DNA from: a virus
Taxonomy: Duplodnaviria; Heunggongvirae; Uroviricota; Caudoviricetes
DNA: 24,527 nucleotides
Direction: 5' to 3' (one strand)
IMG/VR virus record: IMGVR_UViG_2537562172_000002
Coordinates: 1 to 24,527 of that record
A program made the translations under genes and the position numbers. Positions 3,155 to 24,527 of the stretch are shown here, one piece after another (position 1 is the stretch's first letter; the number at the start of each line of letters is the position of its first letter). The notes beneath the pieces were generated by a model, which was given only the letters and a program-made list of their open reading frames with translations, did not search any database and was not told the DNA's origin.

Positions 3155-3516
3155 TATGCTCCAGCCTCCGGTGCTTTTGGCATTACTGCCCAGTGAGTGA
3201 TATTGACGTTTTCAAGGTCCCCGACCTGAAATGTCCACTGCCATTCTCCGGTTTCTTTTTGTCCCCAGGTGTACCAGAGAGAACGCCAGCCAATCAGCCA
3301 GCCTTCTCCGTTAGCATCAAATAACAGAACACTTTCATTTGCTGGTGGCAGTTCAGCTGACACTGGTATTATTTTGTTTTCCAGTGCCGCACATTTAGCT
3401 TCAAGCGCGTCGAATTTACGTAACAGGTACTCAGCATTTGTTTCATTCACTTTCAGATCTCGCGGTACACATTTCCCGCGAAGAAACCCTTCCATTTCGA
3501 AAACATTCATGCGCAT
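3154..3516 (-). CDS. Hypothetical prophage early protein, 120 aa, Trp-rich C-terminus (YfdS-like by size and position)
   Basis: ORF with RBS cggag; overlaps neighbours by a few bases in the same operon. Confidence 0.6.
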   Translation of the reverse strand: MRMNVFEMEGFLRGKCVPRDLKVNETNAEYLLRKFDALEAKCAALENKIIPVSAELPPANESVLLFDANGEGWLIGWRSLWYTWGQKETGEWQWTFQVGDLENVNITHWAVMPKAPEAGA

Positions 3517-4043
3517 TTGCGTAACTCCGATAAATCGTTAAAACGTTCCATAAACATCCCGTAGGCATGACCCGGTGCCAGTGGAATCACGTTGAACATC
3601 TCTGTTGCCGGGATGCCTTCCAGTACAGGCCAGAAAGAGCCATCATCAAGCCCGAGATCGCGGCGTTCGGTTGCCAGCATGATGAGATCGGCATATTTCA
3701 CGGGTGTACTCATAACTGGGGGTAACCCGTATTTCTCACGGATTACGGCGTCTATTTTTTCTTCCATCCGTTTATAGTCAGGAAGAAGGCGTTTCAGTGG
3801 TGCGGGAATGTCCTGGCAATACGCTTCTGTTGCATCATGCATTAACGCTTCAAAAGCAAATTCCTGCGGCACCAGCTGGCTGCAAAGAACCGCATGTTGG
3901 GCGACGCTGTAGAAGTGCGAAAGATGACCGGCAAAGCGACAGATATTTGAAAGGGAAACCGCGATATCGTTAATATCGATGTCGTCTTTATTTATCTTGT
4001 CATAATAAAAATGCTTCCCGGAAAAAGTTTTAATAAATGACAT
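3507..4043 (-). CDS. HD-domain phosphohydrolase (YfdR-like 5'-deoxynucleotidase family)
   Basis: Start at the internal Met MSFIKTFSGKHFYYD with RBS ggagaa; conserved H...HD motif (HAVLCSQ ... LMHDATEAY). Confidence 0.8.
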   Translation of the reverse strand: MSFIKTFSGKHFYYDKINKDDIDINDIAVSLSNICRFAGHLSHFYSVAQHAVLCSQLVPQEFAFEALMHDATEAYCQDIPAPLKRLLPDYKRMEEKIDAVIREKYGLPPVMSTPVKYADLIMLATERRDLGLDDGSFWPVLEGIPATEMFNVIPLAPGHAYGMFMERFNDLSELRKCA

Positions 4044-4170
4044 TTTGTTCTCCACGTATATGCACTGCACCGCGCTGAATTCTGGTAAAAGGAAGCCCTC
4101 ACCATCCGGTGATTATTGAGTTAATTACGTTTCCATAAATGCCCCCGCAGGGGCATTTGCAGTAATGAAA

Positions 4171-4995
4171 TCAGGCGGTGAAAGTACCAATAAAGGTTTC
4201 TACTTTGCTGTCTTTGAATTTCTCAACAAGCAGATCACGAAATTCGTTAGCCATTTCTTCCTGCACCGCTTCCAGCTGAATAATGCGCAGAACCAGTACA
4301 GGACGATCGCCAGTGATAATGCTGAGGCGTAATTTAAACGGACGTTCTTTCAGACCTTCAAACGGAACGCATTTAAATTCAAATGCCACTGGCATAATGT
4401 CTTTGGTCTTCGCTTCGACAGACTCCATCAGGGAGCGTTTGCCGCTGAAGTCATTATCTTCAAAATCAGCGGTCTGGTTTGCTTCAATCGTGATTTTACG
4501 GACTGCCGCAGCCGCTTTTGTTGCTTGAATGGCGTCACCATTAGCATCAAAGCCCACAAGGTAGTCGGCCCAGTCTTCGATCCATTCTGCCAGTGACTTC
4601 TGGGAGTTACGCTCGCCGTTAACAGACAACAGAGCAGAGAACGGTGCTGTCTTTTTCAGTTTGAGAGTGGCAGTGTTATCTGCGTGACCTGGTTCATCAA
4701 TAGTACCCAGGTTAAGCACACTGACGGCTCGCATATTATCGGCATCGATAAAGCAGCGGGTGCCTTCATCTGCAAGATCTTTAGAATAACGGGTAAAGTC
4801 ATCGATGCTGGCAGTGGAAAGCGCACCACGGAAACGGAAGCGATTTAAATTAAATTTTTCCAGATCATGAATGCGGAAATTCTCAGGCAATGCCACAGCA
4901 TCGGCACCAATCTTACTGATAATTTCATTAACACCCTGAGCAGAAATAAGGGCATGGATTTGATTAATTGCGGTTGCGTCTAAGTTCTGAGACAT
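4171..4995 (-). CDS. YfdQ-like prophage protein (DUF2303-type), 274 aa
   Basis: Long ORF with RBS gagga; sequence and size recall E. coli CPS-53 YfdQ; same operon order as yfdP-yfdQ-yfdR-yfdS-yfdT. Confidence 0.75.
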
Positions 4996-5060
4996 AATAA
5001 GTCCTCACTATATAAAAATATTCAGTGATGAGAGAAATAATCAGTTTATTAAAAACGATA

Positions 5061-5423
5061 TTAATGACCTGCTGCGCGGAGTTTTCCGTCAGGTTCACCG
5101 GCAAGAGTCAGTAATTGTCCCTGGTCTTCCTGCAGAATAGTCAGGCGACCACCGCGATTGACATACATCGGCGTTTCGGTGGTGTCTTCTTCGGAAATTT
5201 TCCCGCGGTTAGTTGGGCGAACATATGAGAGTTTGTGTTTGATTTTCACACGGTTCTCATCAAACGGTTCGATTTCCAGATTGAGTGAGACCTTCCCTTT
5301 GGTTTTCGTGTTCATCACACCGGAAGCGACCTCACTGAGAACTGCGCCGATTTTGGTTTCAAATACGCCGCCGTCCAGCTCCCCGATAAATGCCTGCACA
5401 TCAGTACTGCGTTCGCTAGCCAT
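5061..5423 (-). CDS. Hypothetical prophage early protein, 120 aa (YfdP-like)
   Basis: Start chosen at MASERSTDVQ, preceded by gaggag RBS; the longer upstream extension in the ORF track has no RBS. Confidence 0.65.
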   Translation of the reverse strand: MASERSTDVQAFIGELDGGVFETKIGAVLSEVASGVMNTKTKGKVSLNLEIEPFDENRVKIKHKLSYVRPTNRGKISEEDTTETPMYVNRGGRLTILQEDQGQLLTLAGEPDGKLRAAGH

Positions 5424-5833
5424 TTTGCTGCTCCTCATCATATCGACCCTGCAAGGTCGGTTGGTTTCTCCACAAAACAGAGAAGAACACCTGCGGTGGC
5501 AGCCGCCCGGATGGATTGGGTTATGAGCCCGTCGTCCGGTGATGCTCTTCTCTGTTTTGCAAAAAAGGACGGTACCAGCCGGAAGCAAGGGTACAAACTG
5601 GTACCGCCAGGACTACACACAGCATAAAGTTGTGGTGCCGGGTGCCTCCCGGTGCCTGGCGAAGGTTGCACACCAGGCGGGTGGGTATCCACAGAAGGTC
5701 GACTGTCAGCCTCAACCTTAACCCGCGTGCGCTGAGCCGCATTCACCACAACGCTAAGGATTCTCTCTGGTTGAAAATACTTAGCTGTTATGTGCCTGCT
5801 TTTAGCCACATCAGGCGAGGTGGACCTGGTTAT

Positions 5834-5879
5834 TCCCCAACAACAAGGATTCGGTTAATCTGGATATCCCCAACAACAA
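5834..5879. repeat. Two copies of the 13-bp direct repeat TCCCCAACAACAA (5834-5846 and 5867-5879), 33 bp apart
   Basis: Exact repeat seen in the sequence, immediately upstream of the plus-strand gene starting near 5894. Confidence 0.7.
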
Positions 5880-5893
5880 TAAGAGTATTCAAT

Positions 5894-6409
5894 GTGATCG
5901 CTGAATTAACGGCAGCAATGACGGCTATTCGTGAAACAGCCCAGATTGCAAAACTAATGAACGAGGCAAAAACTCAAGCTGAAGTAAATGCGGCTATTGG
6001 TGAGCTGAACTCAAAGCTTGCGTCTATTCAGCGCGAATGCGTGTCTCTCGTTGAACTGGTGGGCTCTTATCAAGAAATAAATGCTTCTCTCAAAGCTAAA
6101 ATTGCAGAATTCGAAAACTTTGAGGCTCAGACGGAAGGCTATATCCTTAACCAACTTGAGTCGGGTACTTTTGTATACTCGAAGGAGGTAATCGTGAACG
6201 GTGGCAGCATAACCATGCATCTTTGCCCAAAATGTTTTGGACAAAAGATAGTATCGATACTTCAACCATTCCCGGTTAGCGAAGATGAGCTTTTTCATAA
6301 AAGCAGGTGCCTCCACTGTGAAAATAAGTTTCTGATGAATAAAAATCCGGATTACGTATCGCCTCCATCCATTGAGGAGTTGTCCAGAAAACTTAACGGC
6401 AATCTGTAG
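5894..6409 (+). CDS. Coiled-coil / zinc-ribbon protein of unknown function (alternative start 5918)
   Basis: N-terminal Ala/Lys/Glu-rich helical region, then CPKC ... CLHC motif pairs; opposite orientation to the surrounding leftward operon; followed by its own terminator. Confidence 0.6.
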   Translation: MIAELTAAMTAIRETAQIAKLMNEAKTQAEVNAAIGELNSKLASIQRECVSLVELVGSYQEINASLKAKIAEFENFEAQTEGYILNQLESGTFVYSKEVIVNGGSITMHLCPKCFGQKIVSILQPFPVSEDELFHKSRCLHCENKFLMNKNPDYVSPPSIEELSRKLNGNL

Positions 6410-6447
6410 ATTACTACTGTTGTGGATATCCAGATTGCTAAAGAGCT

Positions 6448-6472
6448 AAGCGTCCTGTAGGGCGCTTTTTTG
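6448..6472 (+). terminator. Rho-independent terminator for the 5894-6409 gene
   Basis: Hairpin aagcgtcc-tgta-gggcgctt followed by a T-run. Confidence 0.6.
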
Positions 6473-6637
6473 TTGCTAACGAATCATCCTGGACTTCATA
6501 TGCCCCAGGCGGCTACTTCGTGGGCGTCCTGCCTGTTCGTTTTTGACATTTACTGACTGCTTACGACACATGCACCGTGTTGCAACCAGATTTTGTTGTA
6601 ATCCTGTAGTTGGTCTGGAACAAAAGATAAAATTAAA

Positions 6638-6674
6638 TTGCGAGATATGCAAGTGATATTTGCGAGGTATGCAA
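6638..6674. promoter_or_regulatory. Putative left operator: two 15-bp sites TTGCGAGATATGCAA and TTGCGAGGTATGCAA, 22 bp centre to centre
   Basis: Near-identical pseudo-palindromic sites (TTGC...GCAA) matching the site TTGCGTGATAAGCAA upstream of cro. Confidence 0.55.
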
Positions 6675-6687
6675 ATTTATAGGTAGT

Positions 6688-6708
6688 AAAAAGCCACCTT
6701 TCGGTGGC
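6688..6708 (-). terminator. Rho-independent terminator downstream of cI (minus strand)
   Basis: Hairpin gccacc-tttc-ggtggc with an adjacent A-run on the plus strand (U-run on the minus transcript). Confidence 0.55.
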
Positions 6709-6728
6709 CGATGGATGGGATATTGAGG

Positions 6729-7421
6729 TTAATTATGTCTCTTAAGGGTTTGCGACTGACTGATTAAGACCTTTCCAAAGACCATGAATCGGTGTTCGTT
6801 TTCGCTAGTAATTCCCCATTCACGGTAAATCTGGTTATCAGAAATCACCAGCAGTTTGTCAGGAATCATTTGAAGTCTTTTAACGTATATTTTGTCATCA
6901 AAACCAAAGACATATATACCATCACCATCAAACTGATTGATGCTGACATCAACGAAGATGAGATCTCCTGGCTCAATGGTTGGACACATACTGTCCCCAC
7001 GAACGTTGATAACTTTGATGTGATTGGCTGGTCGTCCGCCGAACATTGATACAGCATTATCAGTTCTGTATTCGATGGCATGAATCACATCAATGACATC
7101 ACCGCCCTGGATAAGGCCATTTCCCGCACTGGCACTGATATCCAGCATTTCAATACGGAACACATCCTTCACCTGCGCAACATCCTCATTATTACTGTTT
7201 TTATATACAGTATTACTTTTGTGGGCAGAGGTAAAGAGATCAGCAATATCAACACCTAAGCTCTTGGCAATATTACTCAGTGTTTGTTCGGTAAATTGTT
7301 TTTGCTTACCCGTTTCTAAGCGCGAGATGTTCGCCGCATCTACTCCTATTGCTTCAGCGAGATCGGCGATTTTCATGTTCTTCGCTTGGCGAAGTTGTCT
7401 GACTCGGTTTCCTATGTTCAT
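6729..7421 (-). CDS. cI: CI-like phage repressor: N-terminal HTH (XRE) plus C-terminal S24/LexA-like peptidase domain
   Basis: HTH MKIADLAEAIGVDAANISRLETG; S24 signature VRGDSMCPTIEPGDLIFVD; divergent from a cro-like gene. Confidence 0.9.
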   Translation of the reverse strand: MNIGNRVRQLRQAKNMKIADLAEAIGVDAANISRLETGKQKQFTEQTLSNIAKSLGVDIADLFTSAHKSNTVYKNSNNEDVAQVKDVFRIEMLDISASAGNGLIQGGDVIDVIHAIEYRTDNAVSMFGGRPANHIKVINVRGDSMCPTIEPGDLIFVDVSINQFDGDGIYVFGFDDKIYVKRLQMIPDKLLVISDNQIYREWGITSENEHRFMVFGKVLISQSQTLKRHN

Positions 7422-7518
7422 GCGTTTATTACATTTCTTTATTGCGTGATAAGCAAATCAACTTGCGCAAAATAATTGCGTGAAATAACATGCATAACGC
7501 GCAATATTTGGAGGGCAT
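7422..7518. promoter_or_regulatory. Right operator / divergent promoter region between cI and cro
   Basis: Operator-like site TTGCGTGATAAGCAA (7442-7456), self-complementary TTGCGCAA (7463-7470), further TTGCG/CGCAA half-sites; candidate -35 TTGCGC and -10 TAACAT; RBS ggaggg before cro. Confidence 0.6.
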
Positions 7519-7779
7519 ATGCAATCACCATTACGAAATGTGCGTAAGGCGCATGGTTTCACTTTGCAGCATGTTGCTGCGGGTGTTCAAGTCAATCCAG
7601 CGACGTTGAGTCGTATTGAGAGGCTGGAGCAGATTCCATCTATCGAGCTTGCAGAACGTTTAGCCAATTTTTTTAAGGGTGAAGTCAGCGAAATGCAGAT
7701 TCTTTATCCGGCACGTTTTCAATCTAGCCAAAACCAGAATGGGTTTAAACCACAGGAACAGGAGGTGAACCGTGGGTAA
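7519..7779 (+). CDS. cro: Cro-like HTH regulator, 86 aa
   Basis: HTH GFTLQHVAAGVQVNPATLSRIERLEQIPS; divergent from cI with intervening operators. Confidence 0.8.
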   Translation: MQSPLRNVRKAHGFTLQHVAAGVQVNPATLSRIERLEQIPSIELAERLANFFKGEVSEMQILYPARFQSSQNQNGFKPQEQEVNRG

Positions 7780-8329
7780 GCATCACTGGAAAGTAGAAAA
7801 ACAGCCTGAGTGGTACGTGAAAGCTGTCAGAAAAACTATCGCAGCGTTGCCGGGGGGTTACGCTGAAGCAGCTGACTGGCTGGATGTAACAGAGAACGCA
7901 TTATTTAACCGCCTTCGTGCCGATGGCGATCAGATTTTCCCGCTGGGATGGGCAATGATTTTGCAACGTGCTGGTGGAACTCACTTCATTGCTGACGCTG
8001 TGGCGCAGTCTGCAAATGGCGTCTTTGTGTCTCTTCCTGACGTCGAGGATGTGGACAACGCCGATATTAACCAGCGTCTGCTGGAAGTCATTGAACAGAT
8101 CGGCAGTTATTCAAAACAGATTCGTTCAGCAATCGAAGACGGTGTAGTGGAACCGCATGAGAAGACAGCAATTAACGACGAGCTGTATCTCTCAATTTCG
8201 AAGCTGCAGGAGCATGCAGCACTTGTCTACAAAATTTTTTGCATTTCAGAAAGTAATGACGCCCGCGAGTGTGCAGCTCCGGGCGTCGTGGCGTCGATTG
8301 CTTCTGGTTGTGGAGAAACTAACGCATGA
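7772..8329 (+). CDS. Putative CII-like phage regulatory protein, 185 aa (family assignment tentative)
   Basis: GTG start preceded by caggagg RBS; position directly after cro; sequence recalls CP76/CII-type regulators, not verified. Confidence 0.55.
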
Positions 8330-8664
8330 ACAGTTTAACAACACACTACCGTCGCTCGCAACTGATTGCGCTTCCTGTACCGGGTGGAAAAGCGAAGGTG
8401 GAGTATTGCTATGCAGTAAATGTACCAGGTGACAGGGAAATTGTAACCCACAGCTTTGCAGAGTGGGCTGTGGGTGATTTCAACCGGCAGAAGGAGACAG
8501 TCCTTTGCGACAAGTTAACCGCTGGTTCAAAGATCACTACGGAGTGCCCGTCAGAGTCATTCGTTGGGAACCGGAAACACAATGGGTTATCTACCTCCGC
8601 GAAGGCTATGAGCATGAGTGCTTCAGCCCGCTCGAACAGTTTCGTCGTAAATTCAGGGAAATAG
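8326..8664 (+). CDS. Hypothetical protein, 112 aa; C-terminal third may be out of frame
   Basis: ATG overlaps the preceding stop (ATGA). The last ~50 codons overlap a better-looking ORF in another frame. Confidence 0.4.
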
Positions 8665-8684
8665 AGGTCGGTCATGAGCACTAA
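8505..8684 (+). CDS. Small ORF (59 aa, TTG start), possibly the displaced C-terminus of the upstream gene
   Basis: aaggaga RBS 7 nt upstream of TTG; translation [59 protein letters not shown] is protein-like with typical E. coli codons. Confidence 0.4.
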
Positions 8685-9090
8685 ATTAACCGGCTATGTA
8701 TGGGATGGTTGCGCTGCATCAGGCATGAAGTTATCCAGCGTGGCAATTATGGCCCGCCTGGCTGATTTCAGTAATGACGAAGGTGTGTGCTGGCCATCAA
8801 TTGAAACCATTGCCCGTCAGATTGGCGCGGGGATGAGTACCGTCAGAACGGCTATCGCACGGCTGGAAGCAGAAGGCTGGTTAACGCGTAAGGCGCGTCG
8901 CCAGGGTAACCGGATCCGCGATCTGGACAACTATAACAAGGCGCTGTTTGACGCCCTGACCCACGCGGGTGTGTGGGAAGACGACAGCCAGGTGAAAAGA
9001 ATGCTGGTGGAGTGGGGACCGGTTATCCCGGAAGGGAAGGTCGAGATCACTATCAGTAAGTACGAGAAAACGGCGGGTGCAGCCGCCTGA
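8674..9090 (+). CDS. HTH-domain protein resembling the N-terminal domain of phage replication-initiation proteins, 138 aa
   Basis: Winged-helix-like segment SIETIARQIGAGMSTVRTAIARLEAEGWL; position where lambdoid phages carry O/P. Confidence 0.65.
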   Translation: MSTKLTGYVWDGCAASGMKLSSVAIMARLADFSNDEGVCWPSIETIARQIGAGMSTVRTAIARLEAEGWLTRKARRQGNRIRDLDNYNKALFDALTHAGVWEDDSQVKRMLVEWGPVIPEGKVEITISKYEKTAGAAA

Positions 9091-9109
9091 TCAAGAGGAG
9101 AAACGAAGT

Positions 9110-9919
9110 ATGAATAATCTGATGGTCATTGATGGTATTGAAGTTCGTCGTGATGCTTATGGGCGTTACAGCCTGAACGATCTGCACAGGGCAGCCGGGG
9201 GAGAACAAAAAAACCGCCCGAAATACTGGCTCTCCAATAAGCAAACCTGTGAATTGATTGAACAACTTTTCACCGAGGGTGGAATTCCGCCTCTGGAACA
9301 AAATCAACCAGTTAGCGTCATTAATGGCGGAAATAACCAGGGGACGTATGTCTGCAAAGAACTGGTGTATGCCTATGCAATGTGGATCAGCCCGTCATTC
9401 CATCTGAAGGTGATCCGTACTTTCGATATGGTAACCAGCGCACCGGAAAAATTATCCGGGCAGGCTGCTGACAAGATGCAGGCTGGAGTGATTCTGCTGG
9501 ACTTTATGCGCAGGGAGTTAAACCTGTCTAACTCTTCAGTGCTTGGGGCCTGTCAGAAACTCCAGGAGGCTGTTGGCTTACCGAATCTGGCACCGCGCTA
9601 TGCCATTGATGCTCCTGCTGACGCGCCTGATGGCTCAAGTCGCCCGACACTGTCGCTGAGTGCACTGCTGAAACAGTATGGTATCCGCCTTACGGCTAAT
9701 CAGGCATATCACCAGATGGCGAAGCTGGGGATCGTCGAACAGCGCGAACGATACAGCCGTACAGCGATTAACAACATCAAAAAATTCTGGTCGCTGACGG
9801 CGAAAGGCTGCATGTTCGGCAAGAACATCACCAGTCCTGCAAATCCGCGCGAGACGCAGCCGCATTTCTTCGAATCCCGATTCCCTGAGCTGTTAAAGCT
9901 GCTCGATACCGTTCATTGA
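9110..9919 (+). CDS. KilA-N domain protein
   Basis: ATG with aagaggag RBS; N-terminus MNNLMVIDGIEVRRDAYGRYSLNDLHRAAG...KYWLSNKQTCELIEQ resembles the KilA-N fold consensus. Confidence 0.7.
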   Translation: MNNLMVIDGIEVRRDAYGRYSLNDLHRAAGGEQKNRPKYWLSNKQTCELIEQLFTEGGIPPLEQNQPVSVINGGNNQGTYVCKELVYAYAMWISPSFHLKVIRTFDMVTSAPEKLSGQAADKMQAGVILLDFMRRELNLSNSSVLGACQKLQEAVGLPNLAPRYAIDAPADAPDGSSRPTLSLSALLKQYGIRLTANQAYHQMAKLGIVEQRERYSRTAINNIKKFWSLTAKGCMFGKNITSPANPRETQPHFFESRFPELLKLLDTVH

Positions 9920-9920
9920 G

Positions 9921-10916
9921 GTGACCGTGAGAGCACTACTGACCCCTGAAATTGCCCCGCGTATGGGGATCGTATTGTTCAGGCCAGGTTCAGAGTTGAT
10001 GCCCCTGTTTATGCAGGGGCGTGTACTGCTGGAGCCTGAGCCGGAACGTTATTCATCTTTCGCCAGTGGTGCCGTTCCGGCGGCATCACAACCGCTGGCG
10101 GATGATCCTGCCGTTCGGGCCGTGTTCCGCAATGAGGCAGTGATCCGTCGTGCTGGTGGCGTGGAATGTCTTGAAAGCTGGTTACTTCGTGAAAAAGGCT
10201 GCCAGTGGCCTCATTCCAACTGGCACAGCGAGAACATGACCACAATGCGACACGCGCCTGGCGCAATCCGTCTGTGCTGGCACTGCGATAACCAACTGCG
10301 CGATCAGTTCACGGAACGGCTGGAATCAATGGCAACGGATAACTGTGCCCGCTGGGTGTTGTCTGTTGTGCGTCGGGATCTCGGTTTTGATGATAGTCAC
10401 GTTGTGACAATGCCGGAACTGTGCTGGTGGCTGGTTCGTAATGATCTGGCGGATGCCTTACCGGAAAGCGCAGCCCGTAAGGCACTGAGATTACCGAAGC
10501 CTGTTGTGCCGTCTGTCACCCGGGAAAGTGACCTTGTGCCTTCGGTTCCAGCCACCAGCATCATGCAGGATAAAGCGAAAAAGGTGCTGGCGCTGAAAGT
10601 GGAGCCGGAGTCGCCGGAGTCTTTTATGTTACGCCCCAAACGTCGCCGCTGGGTTAATGAAAAGTACACGCGCTGGGTTAAGACACAGCCGTGTGCATGT
10701 TGTGGAAAGCCTGCTGATGATCCCCACCACCTGATAGGCCACGGTCAGGGGGGAATGAGTACAAAAGCGCATGACCTCTTTGTGTTGCCTTTGTGCAGAA
10801 AGCATCACGACGAGCTGCATGCGGATACCGTGGCATTTGAAGAGAAGTATGGCTCCCAGCTGGAGCTGATATTTCGTTTTATCGACCGTGTGTTGGCAAT
10901 TGGTGTGCTAGCCTGA
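9921..10916 (+). CDS. Phage protein with C-terminal Cys/His-rich (HNH-like / DUF968-like) motif, 331 aa
   Basis: GTG start just after the previous stop; C-terminus CACCGKPADDPHHLIGHGQGG...LCRKHHDELH. Confidence 0.65.
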   Translation: MTVRALLTPEIAPRMGIVLFRPGSELMPLFMQGRVLLEPEPERYSSFASGAVPAASQPLADDPAVRAVFRNEAVIRRAGGVECLESWLLREKGCQWPHSNWHSENMTTMRHAPGAIRLCWHCDNQLRDQFTERLESMATDNCARWVLSVVRRDLGFDDSHVVTMPELCWWLVRNDLADALPESAARKALRLPKPVVPSVTRESDLVPSVPATSIMQDKAKKVLALKVEPESPESFMLRPKRRRWVNEKYTRWVKTQPCACCGKPADDPHHLIGHGQGGMSTKAHDLFVLPLCRKHHDELHADTVAFEEKYGSQLELIFRFIDRVLAIGVLA

Positions 10917-10933
10917 TTTGGTGGAGAAAGTTG

Positions 10934-11299
10934 ATGCGTGATATTCAGATGGTTCTGGAGCGTTGGGGGGCATGGGCGGCGAGTGATAGTTCAGGCGTTG
11001 ATTATTCACCTATAGCCGCTGGGTTTAAGGGACTTCTTCCCTATACAAGCAAGAAACGCTTGGCTTGTTCGGATAGTGATGCCTTAATTATTGAAGGTTG
11101 TCTTGCTCGTCTAAAGCAAAAAAGGCCGGACGAACATTCGCTTCTTGTTGCCCATTACCTATACGGTATCTCTAAAAGAAAGCTCGCCAAGGCTCGTAAA
11201 AAAGATGAGAAATTGATACGTATAGAAATACAGCTAGCCGAAGGATTTATTGATGGCTGCCTTTCCATGCTAGATCTAACATTAGATTTGGACGTTTAA
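10934..11299 (+). CDS. Q: Late-gene antitermination protein Q (QuuD-like)
   Basis: Begins MRDIQMVLERWGAWAA, as I recall for E. coli QuuD; ggag RBS 7 nt upstream; positioned before the late/lysis region. Confidence 0.85.
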   Translation: MRDIQMVLERWGAWAASDSSGVDYSPIAAGFKGLLPYTSKKRLACSDSDALIIEGCLARLKQKRPDEHSLLVAHYLYGISKRKLAKARKKDEKLIRIEIQLAEGFIDGCLSMLDLTLDLDV

Positions 11300-11300
11300 T

Positions 11301-11326
11301 AATACGCCCCTGCATGGGGCGTATTA
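11301..11326. terminator. Perfect 10-bp hairpin between the convergent Q and KAP genes, possibly a bidirectional terminator
   Basis: aatacgcccc-tgcat-ggggcgtatt followed by T-rich sequence, with A-rich sequence upstream. Confidence 0.6.
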
Positions 11327-11327
11327 T

Positions 11328-12659
11328 TTACTGGATGAATGACATTTGATTAATATATTTTATCAATAACTCTCTGGGTGTAGTACTCCAAAAATTTATG
11401 TGTTCATAATCAGTATAAACATTTGTGAATTTTTTAAGTTCTTCATCACTTTTAGGGGCAAATCGCTCATTAAGAGTAATACTGTCTTTAATTATTCCGA
11501 AGAATACAATCGATATTTCAGGGATTTGCGATCTTCTCTCATAAGAATAAGGTATTTCTTTTATGTTAAGCAGGTCTGCTAAATAAGATATAGATTCAGC
11601 GGTAATTTCTTGTTTTAGTTTTTCCTTGTTACCAAAGCAATGTATGAAGGCAGCTACGACAAAGATCATATTTATTAAAGGATCACTGCTTTTGTTCTCA
11701 TCGTCGTTTAACAGTTGGAAAATGTTAAGATTGCGTGAAAATGTTTGTGTTTCACGTAATGATAAGTTGGTTCGTTGAATTAAATCACGGATAAAGTAAC
11801 CTGATAATCTATTGATTTTATTCAATAAGCTTGTTTTTTCTACAAGGTAATCCCAATATATAACAGAGGCTTTACATACGTTGTGACCATTTATCAAACA
11901 TGTATCTGGAAGCGTGATGGTATATTTTATAAACTTGTCAAGATACTTTTGTGAGTTAATGCTATAACCATAAATATGATTTATAGATGCTTTTAATTGT
12001 TCTGTGTTTGTAACTAAAATAAAAAAGACATTATTGATGTCAAAAATGTGTTTTATTGTTTCAATGACATTTGTTGAAAAACTCGGCTTACATCGGTCTA
12101 ATTCATCAATTATAATTACGATTTTTTGATTTTTTGATATGCTTTCGATGCAGGATTTAAGTGAATTTATGTTTTTCTCTGAGTCCATATGGTCTTCAAG
12201 CAAATTTTCAATAGTCCCATCTATTGCTGCATTGCTTGCTTTCTTCATCGCATCTTGGAATTCTTCGGCAACTTCACTAGCCTCCTGTCGTAAAAACCAA
12301 CCTGCACCAGCTTTTAGTACCGTTTTTAAACCAAAGCGAATTGCAGGAAGAGATCTCTTAATGAAGTGTTGTTTTTCTTCCTCAGGCAAAATGCTGGCAA
12401 TTGCAGAGGTTATGAGAAGTAATGGAGATTCTGCATGATCCCCTTTAAAGGCATCAATATAAACAACTTTAGATTCAGTTTCTTGCTCAATAATGAGATT
12501 TTTCAGTTTGATACTAAATTCTGTTTTCCCTGTTCCCCATGCGCCGTCTATTACCAGTGGTGAAATGTCTGCCTCTGGTTTTAGCAACTTGATGATATTT
12601 TCAGCGATGTTTCTTCGTTGGAACTCGTCACGTTCAGTGAAAGATAGTGTATCTAACAT
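11328..12659 (-). CDS. KAP-family P-loop NTPase (PifA-like), 443 aa
   Basis: Walker A GAWGTGKT (aa 39-46) and Walker B VIIIDELD (aa 181-188); visibly AT-rich compared with flanking phage genes; opposite orientation to Q and the late genes. Confidence 0.85.
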   Translation of the reverse strand: MLDTLSFTERDEFQRRNIAENIIKLLKPEADISPLVIDGAWGTGKTEFSIKLKNLIIEQETESKVVYIDAFKGDHAESPLLLITSAIASILPEEEKQHFIKRSLPAIRFGLKTVLKAGAGWFLRQEASEVAEEFQDAMKKASNAAIDGTIENLLEDHMDSEKNINSLKSCIESISKNQKIVIIIDELDRCKPSFSTNVIETIKHIFDINNVFFILVTNTEQLKASINHIYGYSINSQKYLDKFIKYTITLPDTCLINGHNVCKASVIYWDYLVEKTSLLNKINRLSGYFIRDLIQRTNLSLRETQTFSRNLNIFQLLNDDENKSSDPLINMIFVVAAFIHCFGNKEKLKQEITAESISYLADLLNIKEIPYSYERRSQIPEISIVFFGIIKDSITLNERFAPKSDEELKKFTNVYTDYEHINFWSTTPRELLIKYINQMSFIQ

Positions 12660-12781
12660 AATATAAACCTATTAACTCCTACAGTAAAAAACGAATAATA
12701 CGACTTTGGGATTAAAAATCATTAACGCGGTCCGCAAAAATTCTTGTAATCTGTTAAGAGTGTTACTTCGCCACACAGCTT

Positions 12782-12808
12782 AAACCCGCTGTCGAGCGGG
12801 TTTTTTTG
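12782..12808 (+). terminator. Plus-strand intrinsic terminator (candidate tR'-like element)
   Basis: Hairpin aaacccgct-gtcg-agcgggttt followed by a run of seven T; no plus-strand ORF immediately upstream. Confidence 0.55.
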
Positions 12809-12930
12809 TACCTGTAAACCTGGTGCAGTACGGTAAACACGCTGGTGGTAGTGAATACTGATTTTTTATCTTGCTGGCTTTTTAGACAAGAGTTATTGGT
12901 ATGTCATGTTAACCATGAAGGTAAAAAGAC

Positions 12931-13125
12931 ATGCTAAAACAGCAAGATATGACAGAAACGGCGAAAGTGGTTTTTAATGAATTAAGCATCGAACCGGCAA
13001 CAGTCGGGGAGATTGCACAAAACACATACCTTTCACGCGAACGCTGTCAGTTAATACTGACCCAGTTGGTTATGGCGGGGCTGGCAGATTACCAGTTCGG
13101 CTGTTACAGACGCCTTCAGCAATGA
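12931..13125 (+). CDS. Small hypothetical protein, 64 aa, possible winged-helix
   Basis: ATG with weak gaaggt RBS; helical-looking translation; function unknown. Confidence 0.4.
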   Translation: MLKQQDMTETAKVVFNELSIEPATVGEIAQNTYLSRERCQLILTQLVMAGLADYQFGCYRRLQQ

Positions 13126-13274
13126 AGGGCTTTTAATTTGTGAAAATGGGCGGCTGGTGGGTGTTGGTAGCACCTGCCAGCCATTCGCTCATGCTTACTG
13201 GTCACAAGCGAACCACGGCCCACTGCTTTAGCGCAAAAGCAGAGTGAGCCTACCAGAGTTACGCTTACTGATCC

Positions 13275-14327
13275 ATGAAAAATACTGTAAAAATAAACAG
13301 TGTTGATTTAATCAACGCTGATTGCCTGCATTTTATTCAGTCCCTGCCTGATGATTCCATTGACCTGATTGTTACCGATCCGCCGTACTTCAAGGTGAAA
13401 CCCAACGGCTGGGACAATCAGTGGAAAGGGGACGAAGATTACCTGAAGTGGCTGGACCACTGTCTGGCTCAGTTCTGGCGGGTGCTGAAACCTGCCGGAA
13501 GCCTTTACCTGTTCTGTGGACATCGCCTCGCATCTGATATCGAGATCATGATGCGTGAACGTTTCAACGTTCTTAACCATATTATCTGGGCGAAGCCGTC
13601 CGGACGATGGAACGGGTGTAATAAAGAAAGTCTGCGCGCATATTTTCCCGCAACAGAACGCGTTCTGTTTGCTGAACATTACCAGGGGCCATATCGCGGC
13701 AAAAGTGACGGCTATGCGGCAAAAGAAAGTCAACTCAAACAGCACATAATGGCACCGCTGATTTCGTATTTCAGGGATGCTCGTGCCGAACTGGGTATAA
13801 CGGCAAAACAGATTGCCGAAGCCACTGGTAAGAAAAACATGGTTTCCCACTGGTTTGGTGCCAGTCAGTGGCAGTTGCCGAATGAGGCTGACTACCGGAA
13901 GTTGCAGGCACTGTTTTCCCGTATAGCGGCAGAGAAGTTTCAGGAACAACAACTGGAACAACCACACCACCAGCTGGTGGCATCTTATGATTCACTGAAT
14001 CGCAAATATTCTGAATTGCTGGATGAGTTTAAAACTCTCCGGCGCTATTTCTCCGTATCAGTTTCCGTGCCTTATACCGACGTCTGGACGCATAAACCCG
14101 TTCAGTTCTACCCGGGTAAACATCCGTGTGAGAAGCCTGCGGATATGCTCCGGCAAATAATCAATGCCAGTAGTCGACCAGGCGATCTGGTTGCTGATTT
14201 TTTTATGGGATCCGGTTCCACAATAAAAGCAGCAATGGCGCTGGGGCGTCGGGCCTTAGGTGTTGAGCTTGAGTCAGAGCGGTTTAACCAGACGGTGAAA
14301 GAGATAAACGAGCTGGTGGGGAAATAA
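13275..14327 (+). CDS. DNA methyltransferase, beta-class N6-adenine/N4-cytosine type, 350 aa
   Basis: Motif IV DPPY (IVTDPPYF) near the N-terminus and motif I FFMGSGST near the C-terminus; no adjacent restriction endonuclease gene. Confidence 0.9.
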
Positions 14328-14333
14328 TCTGGT

Positions 14334-14356
14334 GGCCACGTCAGGTGGCCTTTTTA
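14334..14356 (+). terminator. Hairpin plus T-run between the methylase and the holin
   Basis: ggccac-gtcag-gtggcc followed by ttttta. Confidence 0.5.
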
Positions 14357-14394
14357 TTTCCATTACACAGCACCCGCATCTGCGAGGTGGGGTT

Positions 14395-14610
14395 ATGAAA
14401 TCAATGGATAAGTTAACAACAGGTGTCGCCTATGGCACCTCTGCAGGCAGTGCTGGCTACTGGTTTTTACAGTTGCTCGATAAAGTCACGCCATCACAGT
14501 GGGCGGCAATAGGTGTGCTGGGTAGTCTGGTATTTGGCCTGCTGACGTACCTGACAAACCTTTATTTCAAGATTAAAGAAGATAAGCGTAAGGCTGCGAG
14601 AGGTGAATAA
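14395..14610 (+). CDS. S: Class II holin of the phage-21 S21 pinholin type, with dual-start motif MKSM
   Basis: [71 protein letters not shown] closely resembles S21 as I recall it; two transmembrane segments; RBS gaggtgggg. Confidence 0.85.
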
Positions 14611-15107
14611 TGTCGCCATCATTACGCAAGGCTGTTGCTGCTGCTATTGGTGGTGGGGCTGTTGCCATAGCGTCTGTGCTCATCACTGGTCCGAGTGGTA
14701 ACGATGGTCTGGAAGGTGTCAGTTACATACCATACAAAGATATTGTTGGCGTATGGACTGTATGTTACGGACACACTGGAAAAGACATCATGCTCGGTAA
14801 AACGTATACCGAAGCAGAATGCAAAGCTCTCCTGAATAAAGACCTTGCCACGGTCGCCAGACAAATTAACCCGTACATCAAAGTCGATATACCGGAAACA
14901 ACGCGCGGCGCTCTTTACTCGTTCGTTTACAACGTTGGTGCTGGAAATTTCAGAACATCGACGCTTCTTCGCAAAATAAACCAGGGTGATATTAAAGGCG
15001 CATGTGATCAGCTACGGCGCTGGACATACGCTGGCGGTAATCAATGGAAAGGACTGATGACTCGCCGTGAGATTGAGCGTGAAGTCTGTTTGTGGGGGAA
15101 ACAATGA
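14610..15107 (+). CDS. R: SAR endolysin (T4-lysozyme-like muramidase with N-terminal signal-arrest-release segment)
   Basis: Gly/Ala-rich N-terminal segment [20 protein letters not shown] followed by lysozyme catalytic region (E...D...CYGHTG); start overlaps holin stop (TAATG). Confidence 0.9.
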
Positions 15108-15562
15108 GCAGAGTAACCGCGATTATCTCCGCTCTGGTTATCTGCATCATCGTCTGCCTGTCATTGGCTGTTAATCATTACCGTGATAACGCAATCGCCT
15201 ACAAAGAGCAGCGCGATAACAAGGCCAGTGAACTGGAGAAGGCGAACGCCACCATCGCTGACATGCAGAAGCGTCAACGTGATGTAGCAGAACTCGACGC
15301 CAGATACACAAAGGAGCTTGCTGATGCTAACGCGACTATCGAAAGTCTACGTGCTGATGTTTCTGTTGGGCGTAAGCGCCTGCAAGTCGCCGCCACCTGT
15401 GCAAAGTCAACGACCGGAGCCAGCGGCATGGGCAATGGAGAAAGCCCAGGACTTACAGCAGATGCTGAACTCAATTATTACCGTCTCCGAAGTGGAATCG
15501 ACAAGATAACCGCGCAGGTTAACTACTTGCAGGAGTACATCAGGACGCAGTGCTTAAAATAA
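15104..15562 (+). CDS. Rz: Rz i-spanin
   Basis: N-terminal transmembrane anchor [18 protein letters not shown] then coiled-coil periplasmic domain; ATG overlaps endolysin stop (ATGA). Confidence 0.85.
15324..15509 (+). CDS. Rz1: Rz1 o-spanin lipoprotein, embedded in the +1 frame of Rz
   Basis: aaggag RBS 7 nt upstream of ATG; signal peptide with lipobox (FLLGVSAC) followed by Pro-rich sequence [13 protein letters not shown]. Confidence 0.75.
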
Positions 15563-15978: not shown

Positions 15979-16599
15979 ATGAAAGATCAAGATGTTAGGT
16001 TCGCGGTGCATCATAAGCTTTTGAAAGAATCGCATTTAGATCCTGACTGCCTTGTGGTCGATGAATTTTCCATATCCCTTGGCGCCAGTAGAGCAGACAT
16101 TGCTGTAATAAATGGTGTTATACACGGGTACGAGCTCAAAAGTGAATATGACTCTTTGGAGCGTTTGCCTCTTCAAATCAAGCATTATTCTTCTGTAATG
16201 GACAAGGTTACTCTTGTCGTAGCTGAGAAACATCTTGAGGGAGCATTAAAGTTAATCCCAGGTTGGTGGGGCGTTAAAACGGTTTCTGTTGGGCCAAAAG
16301 GCGCCATTCTTATAAAGCACATGCGTGGAGAAAAGCTTAATCGAAACCATAACTCATTGATGCTCGCTCAATTGCTTTGGAAAGATGAATGTATCGACGT
16401 ACTTGAACGATGGGGCTATTCCAAAGGAATCAAAAGCAAGCCCCGATTTGAGTTATGGAATATTATTGCGGAAAATATTCCAATAGCGAATCTCAGGCTT
16501 GAAGTCAGAACAGCCTTAAAGAAACGCGTAGGCTGGAAAGTTAAGGCTTGGCAGGCTGAGTCTGCGCCAACCAATAAAGCTGTCTCACGACTAACGTAA
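15979..16599 (+). CDS. PD-(D/E)xK nuclease-fold protein, 206 aa (recalls the sce7726-type family; not verified)
   Basis: Candidate catalytic residues E29, D40 and E52-x-K54 (VVDEF ... RADIAVINGVIHGYELK); own promoter-like signals; 3' end overlaps the convergent partner gene. Confidence 0.75.
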   Translation: MKDQDVRFAVHHKLLKESHLDPDCLVVDEFSISLGASRADIAVINGVIHGYELKSEYDSLERLPLQIKHYSSVMDKVTLVVAEKHLEGALKLIPGWWGVKTVSVGPKGAILIKHMRGEKLNRNHNSLMLAQLLWKDECIDVLERWGYSKGIKSKPRFELWNIIAENIPIANLRLEVRTALKKRVGWKVKAWQAESAPTNKAVSRLT

Positions 16600-17608
16600 T
16601 ATGGTGCGTATGTGCAACTTTACGCCATTCTTTAGAGCCGCCAGATTTGTTAGCGCCTAATGATCTTTGGTAAATGTAATCATCCCCCCAACTAAATTTG
16701 GAGCCAAAGACGTGATACTCTGGCGAACTAACAAGGGTAGTACATAAGTTTTTAGTTTGGCCCCATCCATTTCCTTTAACTGCGGTACCTTTTACAAAGA
16801 TCCATGAGGTATCGTTCGAATATCTCACTGAGACATACTGAGACATGAAGCGTGGGTCTACGCTCGTAATGGTAGAGCTAGCGGTGGGATAATCACTAAA
16901 ACTTGGCGTTCTTCCATTGCTAAAATTCTGTACTACATACATCCAAAGATCGTATTCATGGCGCGGAATATGATGAACTTGATGTTGCGGTATCCCTGCC
17001 TGTGATGCAGGGTATGCGGTTGAAGATAAAATCAAGTTTCTCCACGGAGCTTGGCCTGATAATGTGTTGACCATGCTTAATGCTTGTTGTTTTAAACTAT
17101 CAGTTGCGTTTTGAATATCTCCAAAATCAATGATTACATCAATTAAACTAGGATGAATATTTAAGTGGTTAACCAGACTTGTGAATTGGTGCCATGTCTG
17201 GGGGGTGATAGATATAGCGAGCCCATTGATTAAGTTGCGTTGAACAGCATGTATATAGTTTGTTGAATATGCGGGAGAGACAACAGGGATAATTTCCTTA
17301 CCATTTACTCTAGCATCTTGGATACACATATCTAGAGGATGATGGCGGCTCGAACCATGTTTATCTAAATATTTAACATCCAGCAAAACAGGACGATTGG
17401 CTTTCCAGGATGCCGCAAGGTTAATACCGAAGTCAGATAAGTAAGAACTCAAACTCTTCTTGTAGCATTCGTTTTCATAATCCCAGTCTATGTCTGGAAT
17501 GGTAATGATCGGAGTAAAACCAGAGAGCGTAGTTTGATCTAAAAGCATCAGAGATTCATATTCAGCAGGCTTCCATTTCAGCTGTGGGTAATATTGATGT
17601 TGACTCAT
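16541..17608 (-). CDS. Uncharacterised 355-aa protein, partner of the nuclease-like gene (recalls the sce7725 / beta-protein family; not verified)
   Basis: aaggag RBS 5 nt upstream of the ATG; -10-like TATACT and a palindrome upstream; no motif I can assign by eye. Confidence 0.75.
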   Translation of the reverse strand: MSQHQYYPQLKWKPAEYESLMLLDQTTLSGFTPIITIPDIDWDYENECYKKSLSSYLSDFGINLAASWKANRPVLLDVKYLDKHGSSRHHPLDMCIQDARVNGKEIIPVVSPAYSTNYIHAVQRNLINGLAISITPQTWHQFTSLVNHLNIHPSLIDVIIDFGDIQNATDSLKQQALSMVNTLSGQAPWRNLILSSTAYPASQAGIPQHQVHHIPRHEYDLWMYVVQNFSNGRTPSFSDYPTASSTITSVDPRFMSQYVSVRYSNDTSWIFVKGTAVKGNGWGQTKNLCTTLVSSPEYHVFGSKFSWGDDYIYQRSLGANKSGGSKEWRKVAHTHHITLVVRQLYWLAQTQPAKP

Positions 17609-18020: not shown

Positions 18021-18566
18021 ATGGAAGTCAACAAAAAGCAGCTGGCTGACATTTTCGGTGCGAGTATCCGTACCATTCAGAACTGGCAGGAACAGGGAAT
18101 GCCCGTTCTGCGAGGCGGTGGCAAGGGTAATGAGGTGCTTTATGACTCTGCCGCCGTCATAAAATGGTATGCCGAAAGGGATGCTGAAATTGAGAACGAA
18201 AAGCTGCGCCGGGAGGTTGAAGAACTGCGGCAGGCCAGCGAGGCAGATCTCCAGCCAGGGACTATTGAGTACGAACGCCATCGACTTACGCGTGCGCAGG
18301 CCGACGCACAGGAACTGAAGAATGCCAGAGACTCCGCTGAAGTGGTGGAAACCGCATTCTGTACTTTCGTGTTGTCGCGGATCGCAGGTGAAATTGCCAG
18401 TATTCTCGACGGGATCCCCCTGTCGGTGCAGCGGCGTTTTCCGGAACTGGAAAACCGACATGTTGATTTCCTGAAACGGGATATCATCAAAGCCATGAAC
18501 AAAGCAGCCGCGCTGGATGAACTGATACCGGGGTTGCTGAGTGAATATATCGAACAGTCAGGTTAA
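18021..18566 (+). CDS. nu1: Terminase small subunit Nu1, 181 aa
   Basis: MEVNKKQLADIFGASIRTIQNWQEQGMPVLRGGGKGNEVLYDSAAVIKWYAERDAEIENEKLRR... is near-identical to lambda Nu1 over its whole length. Confidence 0.95.
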   Translation: MEVNKKQLADIFGASIRTIQNWQEQGMPVLRGGGKGNEVLYDSAAVIKWYAERDAEIENEKLRREVEELRQASEADLQPGTIEYERHRLTRAQADAQELKNARDSAEVVETAFCTFVLSRIAGEIASILDGIPLSVQRRFPELENRHVDFLKRDIIKAMNKAAALDELIPGLLSEYIEQSG

Positions 18567-18807
18567 CAGGCTGCGGCATTTTGTCCGCGCCGGGCTTCGC
18601 TCACTGTTCAGGCCGGAGCCACAGACCGCCGTTGAATGGGCGGATGCCAATTACTATCTCCCGAAAGAATCCGCATACCAGGAAGGGCGCTGGGAAACAC
18701 TGCCCTTTCAGCGGGCCATCATGAATGCGATGGGCAGCGACTACATCCGCGAGGTGAATGTGGTGAAGTCTGCCCGTGTCGGTTATCCGACAGGAAACAC
18801 TGAATGA
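18541..18807 (+). pseudogene. A: Terminase large subunit A, truncated after codon 82
   Basis: First 82 residues (MNISNSQVNRLRHFVRAG...KSARVGY) match lambda gpA; the frame then reads PTGNTE and stops. Junction near 18786 at a TATCC microhomology. Confidence 0.85.
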
Positions 18808-19810
18808 ATGCACCCGTGCGGAGCAGTCGGCCAGCGTGGTGCTCTGGGAAATCGACCTGACAGAGGTCGGTGGAGAACGTTATTTTTTCTGTAATGAGCA
18901 GAACGAAAAAGGTGAGCCGGTCACCTGGCAGGGGCGACAGTATCAGCCGTATCCCATTCAGGGGAGTGGTTTTGAACTGAATGGCAAAGGCACCAGTACG
19001 CGCCCCACGCTGACGGTTTCTAACCTGTACGGTATCGGTGCCGGTATTGAGAACACCCCTGACGGCATGCAGAGTCAGGTGCTGCTGGCAGCAGACAGGA
19101 TTGCGATGATTAATCCTGCGAATGGCAACACAAAGCCGATGTTTGTTGGTCAGGGCGATCAGATATTCATGAATGAAGTGTTCCTGAAACGCCTGACGGC
19201 CCCCACCATTACCAGCGGCGGTAATCCTCCGGCATTTTCCCTGACATCAGACGGGAGACTGACGGCGAAAAATGCGGATATCAGTGGCAGTGTGAATGCG
19301 AACTCAGGAACGCTCAACAATGTCACGATTAACCAGAACTGTACGATTAAGGGCATGCTGGAGGCGACCCAGGTCAGAGGAGATTTCGTTAAAGCTGTAT
19401 CAAAAGCCTTCCCGAAAAAAGTCGGTACGTGGGGTAACACGGAAACACCAAACGGTACGGTTACAGTCACCATCAGCGATGATCATAACTTTGACCGCCA
19501 GATTATTATTCCGCCCATTATTTTTAACGGTATAGCGTATGACGATCCGGGGAGCGGAAATAACCCAGGAGGCACGCGATACACGGGTTATGGTTTTGAA
19601 GTTCGCAAAAACGGCGTATTAATCGCATCCAGAGAAACTAAAGGGGCCATTCCCGGTAGTTACAGTGCAGTTATTGATATGCCGAGTGGCAGGGGAAGCG
19701 TCACTCTGGAGTTTAAGATTTTCCAGAAAGGCAATCAGGGGGCAGGCAATATCACCGACTGTACGGTGATTGTGACCAAAAAAGCCGCTTCCGGCATCAG
19801 TATTCGTTGA
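18776..19810 (+). pseudogene. In-frame fusion remnant: tail protein L N-terminus (~86 aa) joined to the C-terminal receptor-binding region of a J-like host-specificity protein
   Basis: ...[35 protein letters not shown]...TLTVSNLYG matches lambda L; the remainder ([22 protein letters not shown]...DDHNFDRQI...[10 protein letters not shown]...[10 protein letters not shown]) resembles the lambda J C-terminus; no RBS at the GTG. Confidence 0.65.
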
Positions 19811-23943: not shown

Positions 23944-24527
23944 TGGCATTCAGAATGAGTGAACAACCACGGACCATAAAAATTTATAATCTGCTGGCCG
24001 GAACTAATGAATTTATTGGTGAAGGTGACGCATATATTCCGCCTCATACAGGTCTGCCAGCAAACAGTACCGATATTGCACCGCCAGATATTCCGGCTGG
24101 CTTTGTGGCTGTTTTCAACAGTGATGAGGCATCGTGGCATCTCGTTGAAGATCATCGGGGAAAAACCGTCTATGACGTGGCTTCCGGCGACGCGTTATTT
24201 ATTTCTGAACTTGGCTCGTTACCGGAAAATGTCACCTGGTTATCGCCGGAAGGGGAATATCAGAAGTGGAACGGCACAGCCTGGGTGAAGGATACGGAAG
24301 CAGAAAAACTGTTCCGGATCCGGGAGGCGGAAGAAACAAAAAACAACCTGATGCAGGTAGCCAGTGAGCATATTGCGCCACTTCAGGATGCTGCAGATCT
24401 GGAAATCGCAACGGAGGAAGAAAACTCGTTGCTGGAAGCCTGGAAAAAGTATCGGGTGTTGCTGAACCGTGTTAATACAACAACTGCACCTGATATTGAG
24501 TGGCCTACGAACCCTGTCAGGGAGTAA
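23943..24527 (+). CDS. tfa: Tail fibre assembly protein, 194 aa
   Basis: ATG overlaps stf stop (TAATG); position and size match lambda Tfa; the ORF ends exactly at the window end. Confidence 0.9.

Follow-up and report, generated by a model that had tools for sequence, protein, structure and literature searches.

An M.EcoGII-family methyltransferase gene behind a putative late terminator in a lambdoid prophage remnant of Escherichia coli

The DNA analysed here (the window) is the 24,527 nucleotides (nt) of IMG/VR virus record IMGVR_UViG_2537562172_000002, an Escherichia coli lambdoid prophage, and our subject is an orphan DNA methyltransferase gene (the methylase) with the terminators on either side of it and the putative promoter that precedes it. 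The antiterminator gene Q is followed by a KAP-family gene on the opposite strand and then, on the plus strand, by a conserved block of about 60 base pairs (bp), a terminator, a small open reading frame (ORF), a structured leader, the methylase, a second terminator, and the lysis genes for a holin, a lysozyme, and Rz (Table 1).

Table 1. Features of the window from Q to the lysis genes, with the evidence for each
Feature	Position	Strand	Evidence and details
Q antiterminator gene	10934-11299	+	121 amino acids from ATG (TTG at 10931 in the ORF list); Pfam PF06530, E 1.8e-52
Long inverted repeat, from Q stop codon to KAP 3′ end	11301-11325	both	-20.9 and -20.8 kcal/mol, z -5.1 and -6.9
KAP-family P-loop NTPase gene, candidate anti-phage defence	11328-12659	-	Pfam PF07693, E 4.9e-71; PADLOC PDC-S20
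Conserved block, putative late promoter PR′ and Q-utilisation site	12714-12774	+	Alignment of 52 unique blocks; mobility; DLP12
A-tract of block	12714-12722	+	Block alignment
Element GCGGTCCGCA, varying with Q clade	12727-12736	+	Block alignment
-10-like TAATCT	12747-12752	+	Block alignment
Invariant stretch TGTTAAGAGTG-GTTACTTCGCCAC, with 1-nt deletion in the window	12752-12774	+	Block alignment
Intrinsic terminator, proposed tR′	12782-12807	+	Fold; scan; SfV counterpart; conservation with several stem sequences
Small conserved ORF	12931-13125	+	64 amino acids; PHROG 331, E 5.9e-35
Stem-loop at small-ORF stop codon	13113-13128	+	Scan; fold; compensatory changes
Structured leader before methylase	13129-13274	+	146 nt; nearly invariant in alignment A2; fold -58.7 kcal/mol, z -2.4
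Beta-class N6-adenine DNA methyltransferase, orphan, M.EcoGII family	13275-14327	+	350 amino acids; Pfam PF01555; 81% identity to M.EcoGII
Intrinsic terminator closing the methylase cassette, before the holin leader	14334-14359	+	Scan; fold; SfV annotation
Lysis genes	14395-15562	+	Holin 14395-14610 (phage-21-type), lysozyme 14610-15107, Rz 15092-15562; Pfam PF04971, PF00959, PF03245

The methylase carries motif IV (TDPPYF, amino acids 34-39, with DPPY at 35-38 and nt 13377-13388) ahead of motif I (FFMGSGST, amino acids 309-316), whose S-adenosylmethionine-binding FMGSG spans amino acids 310-314 (nt 14202-14216). The Pfam profile N6_N4_Mtase is matched over positions 1-220 of 221 (E 1.5e-42; 146.5 bits against a cutoff of 26.7). 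With DPPY preceding FxGxG and a whole-domain match above the cutoff, the enzyme is of the beta class, as an earlier note on this DNA, made from the sequence alone, had stated. That note also saw no restriction endonuclease partner nearby. None was found in Pfam scans of the larger window ORFs or PADLOC scans of four window proteins, among which some ORFs match no family. The neighbors of the methylase are the small ORF, which is winged-helix-like, and the holin gene, in place of the adjoining endonuclease gene that marks a type II restriction-modification system.

Over its full length the methylase is identical to M.EcoGII at 281 of 349 residues with 2 gaps (81%), with the reference machine-read from a supplementary PDF of PMC11551740 and liable to small optical-reading errors. 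Identity to the enzyme of phage 1720a-02, which Murray et al. point to as closely resembling M.EcoGII (PMC5778455), is also 81% (283 of 350 residues). We assign the methylase to the M.EcoGII family on this similarity. M.EcoGII is prophage-borne, methylates adenine in any context, is unexpressed in its native lysogen, and is harmful if expressed constitutively (PMC5778455); in a 2025 review it is classed, like Mu Mom, as toxic and as silent in the lysogen (PMC12707154). By analogy, the methylase of the window probably has little or no sequence preference on adenines. The earlier note had expected methylome sequencing to reveal a target motif; because the characterised family member is non-specific, a defined motif probably does not exist.

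Both hairpins that the earlier note described around the methylase are present. The upstream one, said to be a strong plus-strand terminator with no gene before it on that strand, has at 12782-12803 a stem of 9 pairs (5 of them G-C), a 4-nt loop, and a T run (AAACCCGCTGTCGAGCGGGTTT TTTT), and folds at -17 kcal/mol (z -2.46). The plus-strand ORFs that precede it (e.g., 12493-12666) are only antisense ones within the KAP gene. The hairpin before the holin, GGCCAC-GTCAG-GTGGCC followed by TTTTTATTT, folds at -12.2 kcal/mol (z -2.66), and the equivalent site in phage SfV carries a terminator annotation.

We examined 80 viral contigs encoding the Q family of the window, together with annotated phage and E. 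coli records. This Q family is carried by 86 loci, and in 80 of them the block and terminator lie downstream of Q on the same strand, from about 0 to 3 kb past its stop codon. A perfect-stem hairpin with a T run starts 25-37 nt past the conserved block in most of 59 unique related sequences, with at least five different stem sequences, and most of the remaining sequences have an imperfect stem. The alignment indicates that terminator function is conserved at this position beyond any one sequence, and well beyond chance. In DLP12 of strain K-12, whose QuuD is 50% identical to the window Q, the block and terminator are about 120 nt before essD, with the porin gene nmpC in antisense orientation in the interval from quuD to the block.

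Phage SfV connects this terminator to a recognizable late promoter. The Q protein of SfV is of the lambda family (35% identical to lambda Q, E 5e-42), and downstream of its gene is TTGCAT-17-TAAGAT, then 6 nt and AACGATGGG. The lambda record has PR′ and its pause-inducing sequence as TTGACT-17-TAAATT, then 6 nt and AACGATGGG, so that in sequence the SfV promoter copies the experimentally defined PR′ of lambda element for element. Homology between SfV and the window starts exactly at the terminator, about 30 nt past the SfV start site, and continues at about 95% nucleotide identity through the second terminator. Because this homology begins about 30 nt past the start of a lambda-type PR′, the shared terminator is the first terminator after an identifiable PR′.

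These comparisons support the suggestion of the earlier note that 12782-12807 is tR′, the terminator that follows the late promoter, and that the methylase and the small ORF would be Q-dependent late cargo; for the latter, members of the M.EcoGII family are also reported to be silent in lysogens. We think it likely that the region is the start of a lambdoid late operon, in which a Q-dependent PR′ in the block and tR′ together hold the methylase silent until induction. The Q gene itself has a match in PHROG 79, “anti-termination protein Q-like”.

The promoter would be inside the conserved block, to the right of the KAP gene, under either of two layouts. Aligned in register, the 52 unique blocks share the A-tract, (C/T)TAnCG, invariant GCGGTCCGCA, a variable stretch of 15 nt, and invariant TGTTAAGAGTGGTTACTTCGCCAC. 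In nearly all variants, the last five variable bases, read together with the T that opens the invariant stretch, make up TAnnnT (TAATCT, TACTGT, TAATGT, TATCGT, and TATTAT; the exception is CAGTAT), and only T1, A2, and T6 are conserved, a signature expected of an element read by region 2 of sigma-70. If TAATCT is the -10 element, transcription would start near 12759 and the terminated RNA would be about 50 nt long; the A-tract would then be at -45 to -37, the position of an UP-element proximal subsite, and GCGGTCCGCA at -32 to -23. The A-tract was considered as a -10 element in its own right and is unlikely to be one, since many variants do not end in T (AAAAAAC, AAAAAG).

In place of GCGGTCCGCA, two loci have GCGTACGCA and DLP12 has ACGTACGTA; the stretch TGTTAAGAGTGGTTACTTCG is unchanged. 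In the loci with GCGTACGCA or ACGTACGTA, Q is about 50% identical to that of the window and differs mainly in its C-terminal helix-turn-helix-like segment. This covariation with the Q clade fits what a putative Q-binding element would show, and the Q-binding elements of lambda and phage 21 lie between -35 and -10 (PMC6606751). In the comparison with known PR′ and qut regions, which the earlier note had proposed, SfV has the same terminator and a promoter that matches lambda PR′; the two TGAGCA repeats at -21 and -13 that form the Q-binding element of phage 21 (PMC6606751) are absent from the window block, and the window Q is only remotely like the solved Q of phage 21 (E 0.005). A “+1” for DLP12 can be derived from the primers in PMC7918800 (forward primer at 4254 of locus L087); it falls at about 4375, about 350 nt upstream of the block, and belongs to an RpoE-dependent promoter, not PR′.

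The earlier note could see no convincing -35 and -10 by eye. A consensus promoter scan of 10800-14700 does not report the block either, and it finds no more sites in total than in shuffles (7 against 7.9 expected); what the block offers is the conserved TAnnnT signature. A promoter-like TTAACT-16-AATAAT is at 12672-12699 on the plus strand, in the region upstream of the KAP gene. Together with the lack of a canonical -35, it could mean that 12782-12807 ends a small stand-alone RNA, or insulates the late genes from the divergent KAP promoter region, and that the true late promoter is elsewhere. A small-RNA role is compatible with what is known of terminated PR′ transcripts, which can be regulatory, as StxS is (PMC7547250). 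The match is at chance level, however, and lies in KAP-specific sequence that other loci lack, whereas the block and terminator go with the Q family whatever is upstream. The block also abuts Q in cargo-free loci and the lysis genes in DLP12, which leaves no room for another late promoter, and a search of 11250-14450 against Rfam gave no match at gathering thresholds or at E up to 1. We regard a stand-alone RNA or insulator with a late promoter elsewhere as very improbable.

Several observations weigh against the late-operon reading itself. There is no canonical -35 at 16-18 bp upstream of TAATCT, the best candidate being TTAACG at 19 bp, and no convincing -10-like, sigma-dependent pause element in the first 25 transcribed bases; AAGAGT overlaps the proposed start site. 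In the other layout, TAnnnT may be the pause element, with the promoter in the A-tract and the start upstream, near the GC-rich element. The optical-reading errors mentioned above bear on the M.EcoGII comparison. The block of the window also lacks one G (GAGTGTTAC against GAGTGGTTAC; GAGTG-GTTAC; TGTTAAGAGTG-GTTACTTCG), a deletion absent from the other 51 unique blocks that could impair Q loading. A contig whose Q is 100% identical to that of the window (L007) has a block of normal form. Lastly, the loss of replication and morphogenesis genes may mean that the cassette is decaying.

These losses are evident elsewhere in the window. ORF 8674-9090 joins the N-terminal part of an HTH_36 (replication-protein-like) protein to the C-terminal part of RusA, and Nu1 is directly followed by a single fused ORF with tail protein L, tail-tip, and J C-terminal domains, with lom after it (region 18021-19810). 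Because of these two fusions we conclude that the prophage is a deletion remnant, from which the replication and head genes and most tail genes are gone. The earlier note had proposed self-methylation of phage DNA against host restriction; because the remnant is without head, tail, and replication genes, the methylase cannot now serve to protect progeny DNA in this strain.

The architecture could then be as described but a fossil here, with a cassette that is no longer induced or no longer useful, to which the HTH_36/RusA and tail fusions and the unique deletion in the block would both point. Yet Q, the methylase, and the holin, lysozyme, and Rz genes are all intact ORFs, as is the gene for the cI-type repressor with its S24 peptidase domain. 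Four complete genomes of unrelated origin (chicken, food, human, and bongo) contain 10900-14700 at 99.6-100% identity, with identical copies among those of chicken, food, and human origin. DLP12 is likewise a remnant, and its lysis cassette under Q control is reported to remain functional (Rueggeberg et al. 2013, as cited in PMC7918800). On balance we think it unlikely that the cassette is a fossil in this strain.

The cassette from terminator to terminator (12753-14360) is found in 2492 of 5426 complete E. coli genomes at a coverage of at least 80%, in up to 8 places per genome. It is also present in many sequenced phages, including SfV, cdtI, mEp460, Ayreon, and numerous Shiga toxin (Stx) phages. 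It is an ordinary, very widespread prophage cassette of an already characterised kind. In the Stx phage 1720a-02, the methylase lies between the conserved block and stx2A, and stx2 is a late gene that depends on Q and PR′ (PMC7547250; PMC6266700); because of this position, late transcripts must cross the methylase in that phage.

The cassette moves as a unit among phages with different Q types, and it has a downstream terminator of its own, as morons have. It may thus be an autonomous moron with its own promoter in 12808-13274, independent of Q and acting on the host chromosome in an epigenetic or regulatory way in the lysogen. A promoter could be hidden in the highly conserved 120 nt before the small ORF or in the methylase leader. 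However, the consensus scan reports nothing promoter-like in 12808-13274, expression of the characterised family members is absent in the lysogen and deleterious when constitutive, and the cassette is always directly behind tR′ in the late direction. An autonomous moron seems quite improbable to us; the methylase is probably silent in this lysogen, as the terminator upstream and the lack of a promoter match suggest.

The region between tR′ and the methylase may contain further control elements. The product of the small ORF is probably a winged-helix protein: three variants have sub-threshold matches to DprA_WH, TrmB, and MarR_2, and one RefSeq record labels the ORF “TrmB family transcriptional regulator”. 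A single-sequence AlphaFold model is helical, with a predicted local distance difference test (pLDDT) score of 65, too low for a fold search. A link to lambda orf-64 was rejected; equal length was its sole ground and the sequences look unrelated. The approximately 120 nt upstream of the small ORF, and the methylase leader, are more conserved than the coding sequence. The stem at the stop codon of the small ORF is kept across loci by compensatory changes (CCTTCA/TGAAGG, CTGCCA/TGGCGG, and CCTCCA/TGGAGG in alignment A2) and may be a weak terminator or attenuator. The leader has a 12-pair hairpin (13149-13182) that contains a Chi site, and two further stems, and no Shine-Dalgarno sequence precedes the methylase ATG; these features suggest translational control, in which the leader would hold translation back further.

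We propose the following mechanism. Q would be made from the early rightward transcript, and the block, about 1.4 kb further on and past the antisense KAP gene, would be both the constitutive late promoter PR′ and the site at which Q is loaded onto RNA polymerase. In the absence of Q, transcripts would stop about 50 nt on at tR′, and the small ORF, methylase, and lysis genes would be silent in the lysogen. After induction, Q-modified polymerase would pass tR′, the weak hairpin at 13113-13128, and the terminator before the holin, and the methylase and lysis genes would be expressed. The methylase would mark adenines on replicating phage DNA with little or no sequence preference, and many restriction systems may be blunted at once. 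Terminator control, with probably weak translation from a structured leader that lacks a Shine-Dalgarno sequence, would keep the toxic enzyme off the host chromosome.

The earlier note had placed the KAP gene as an insertion between Q and the late promoter, a placement with which the comparison agrees, given that the block lies to the right of the gene. PADLOC PDC-S20, a candidate defence family, matches KAP over its full length (E 4.8e-177; residues 3-442, profile positions 4-449 of 450). The GC content of the gene is 33%, against 48% for the window, and other genes occupy the same slot elsewhere; on these two grounds it appears to be a foreign insert. The inverted repeat at its 3′ end is missing from loci without cargo and is likely a terminator for the KAP gene and an insulator.

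The slot (11300-12713 in the window) is nearly empty in 12 of the 80 loci with the block (numbered within L001-L087), mostly of the Stx-phage type. The other 68 hold 0.8-3 kb of differing genes, nearly all on the opposite strand. Many occupants match known or candidate defence proteins: PDC-S20, PDC-S42, a PDC-M68A-type HNH protein, TIR-TM, an AriA/OLD-like ATPase, an Aga-type restriction endonuclease domain, and NsnA (DUF262), the last together with a cytosine methylase and a HEPN-like nuclease. The slot of one locus (L005 609-3470, E. coli AR_0011) has a cytosine methylase on the plus strand and a DUF262 protein and HEPN-like nuclease on the minus strand, which looks like a restriction-like system beside an M.EcoGII-type methylase cassette. 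A limited literature search found no paper that describes this slot. We suggest, tentatively and with some doubt, that the gap between Q and the promoter is a dedicated, undescribed hotspot for cargo expressed in the lysogen, often defence-like, and that its Q family uses a new loading layout in which a sigma-region-4-like Q reads a clade-covarying element at the -35 position.

The left part of the window has a tRNA gene (1369-1441), probably the attachment site of the prophage, adjoining an integrase gene, and then genes for the cI-type repressor and for cro-like and cII-like proteins. A KilA-N protein and a DUF968 protein are encoded before Q. To the right of Rz are Nu1 and the tail remnants, and Rfam reports IS009 at 24286-24484 (226 bits) near the right end. 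Further cargo lies between Rz and Nu1: 15979-16599 on the plus strand matches PADLOC “cll” (E 3e-31), and 16541-17608 on the minus strand matches PADLOC “PD-Lambda-2_C”/“beta” (E 5e-32) and Pfam PF14350 Beta_protein. These two are probably another defence insert. The window has 11 Chi sites (GCTGGTGG), with 0.64 expected, all within 3341-14319. Nine are on the plus strand, which is the active orientation given a cos site to the right, and four of these nine are in the methylase cassette (12841-12848, 13153-13160, 13973-13980, and 14312-14319); lambdoid phages rich in Chi have already been described (PMC12315714).

In principle none of this is new: the enzyme family is already established, as are control by Q and the position in the late operon of Stx phages. 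Further work might be worthwhile only on the cargo slot and on how the promoter of this Q family is laid out. The arrangement would explain how a toxic and probably non-specific DNA methylase is carried safely, behind a late terminator and released only by Q. Such cassettes are present, at times in several copies, in nearly half of complete E. coli genomes, and the induction of even defective prophages could hypermethylate DNA. This would bear on restriction barriers, on restriction that depends on N6-methyladenine (m6A), and on how methylome data are read.

The closest known enzymes are M.EcoGII and M.EcoGI of E. coli O104:H4 C227-11 (Murray et al. 2018, PMC5778455), which have the same N-terminal DPPY, central target-recognition region, and C-terminal FxGxG. 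M.EcoGII and the enzyme of the window are both prophage-borne orphans of nearly equal length (349 and 350 amino acids) with an almost gapless alignment; many of the differences, which affect about 19% of residues, fall in the central region (amino acids 140-260). The mom function of phage Mu is a looser parallel. It is also a phage DNA modification that is silent in the lysogen, toxic on expression, and switched on late (PMC12707154), but its enzyme, chemistry, and control circuit (Dam/OxyR/C and Com) are unrelated to the methylase.

The orf47-orf48 cassette of SfV (NC_003444) and its equivalents in cdtI, mEp460, and Ayreon have the same position between a late promoter and the lysis genes, and the SfV record annotates both cassette terminators. 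SfV has a lambda-family Q and a lambda-type PR′, whereas the window has a PF06530-family Q and a different promoter block; in cdtI, a central segment of the small ORF is replaced. The PR′-qut-tR′ unit of lambda (6S RNA) and the PR′-tR′ unit of Stx phages (StxS RNA) have the same order of Q, promoter, immediate terminator, cargo, and lysis genes on one strand, and a short terminated RNA would be expected in the lysogen in each case, of about 50 nt in the window, where that of lambda has 194 nt and that of Stx phages 258 nt. In loci with the Q family of the window, unlike in those units, Q and the promoter can be as much as 3 kb apart, with antisense cargo in between. DLP12 (quuD, nmpC, essD, rrrD, rzpD) is without the methylase cassette, its terminator being directly followed by the holin leader, and has ACGTACGTA in place of GCGGTCCGCA, but it shares with the window a related Q, the invariant TGTTAAGAGTGGTTACTTCG of the block, and the same terminator.

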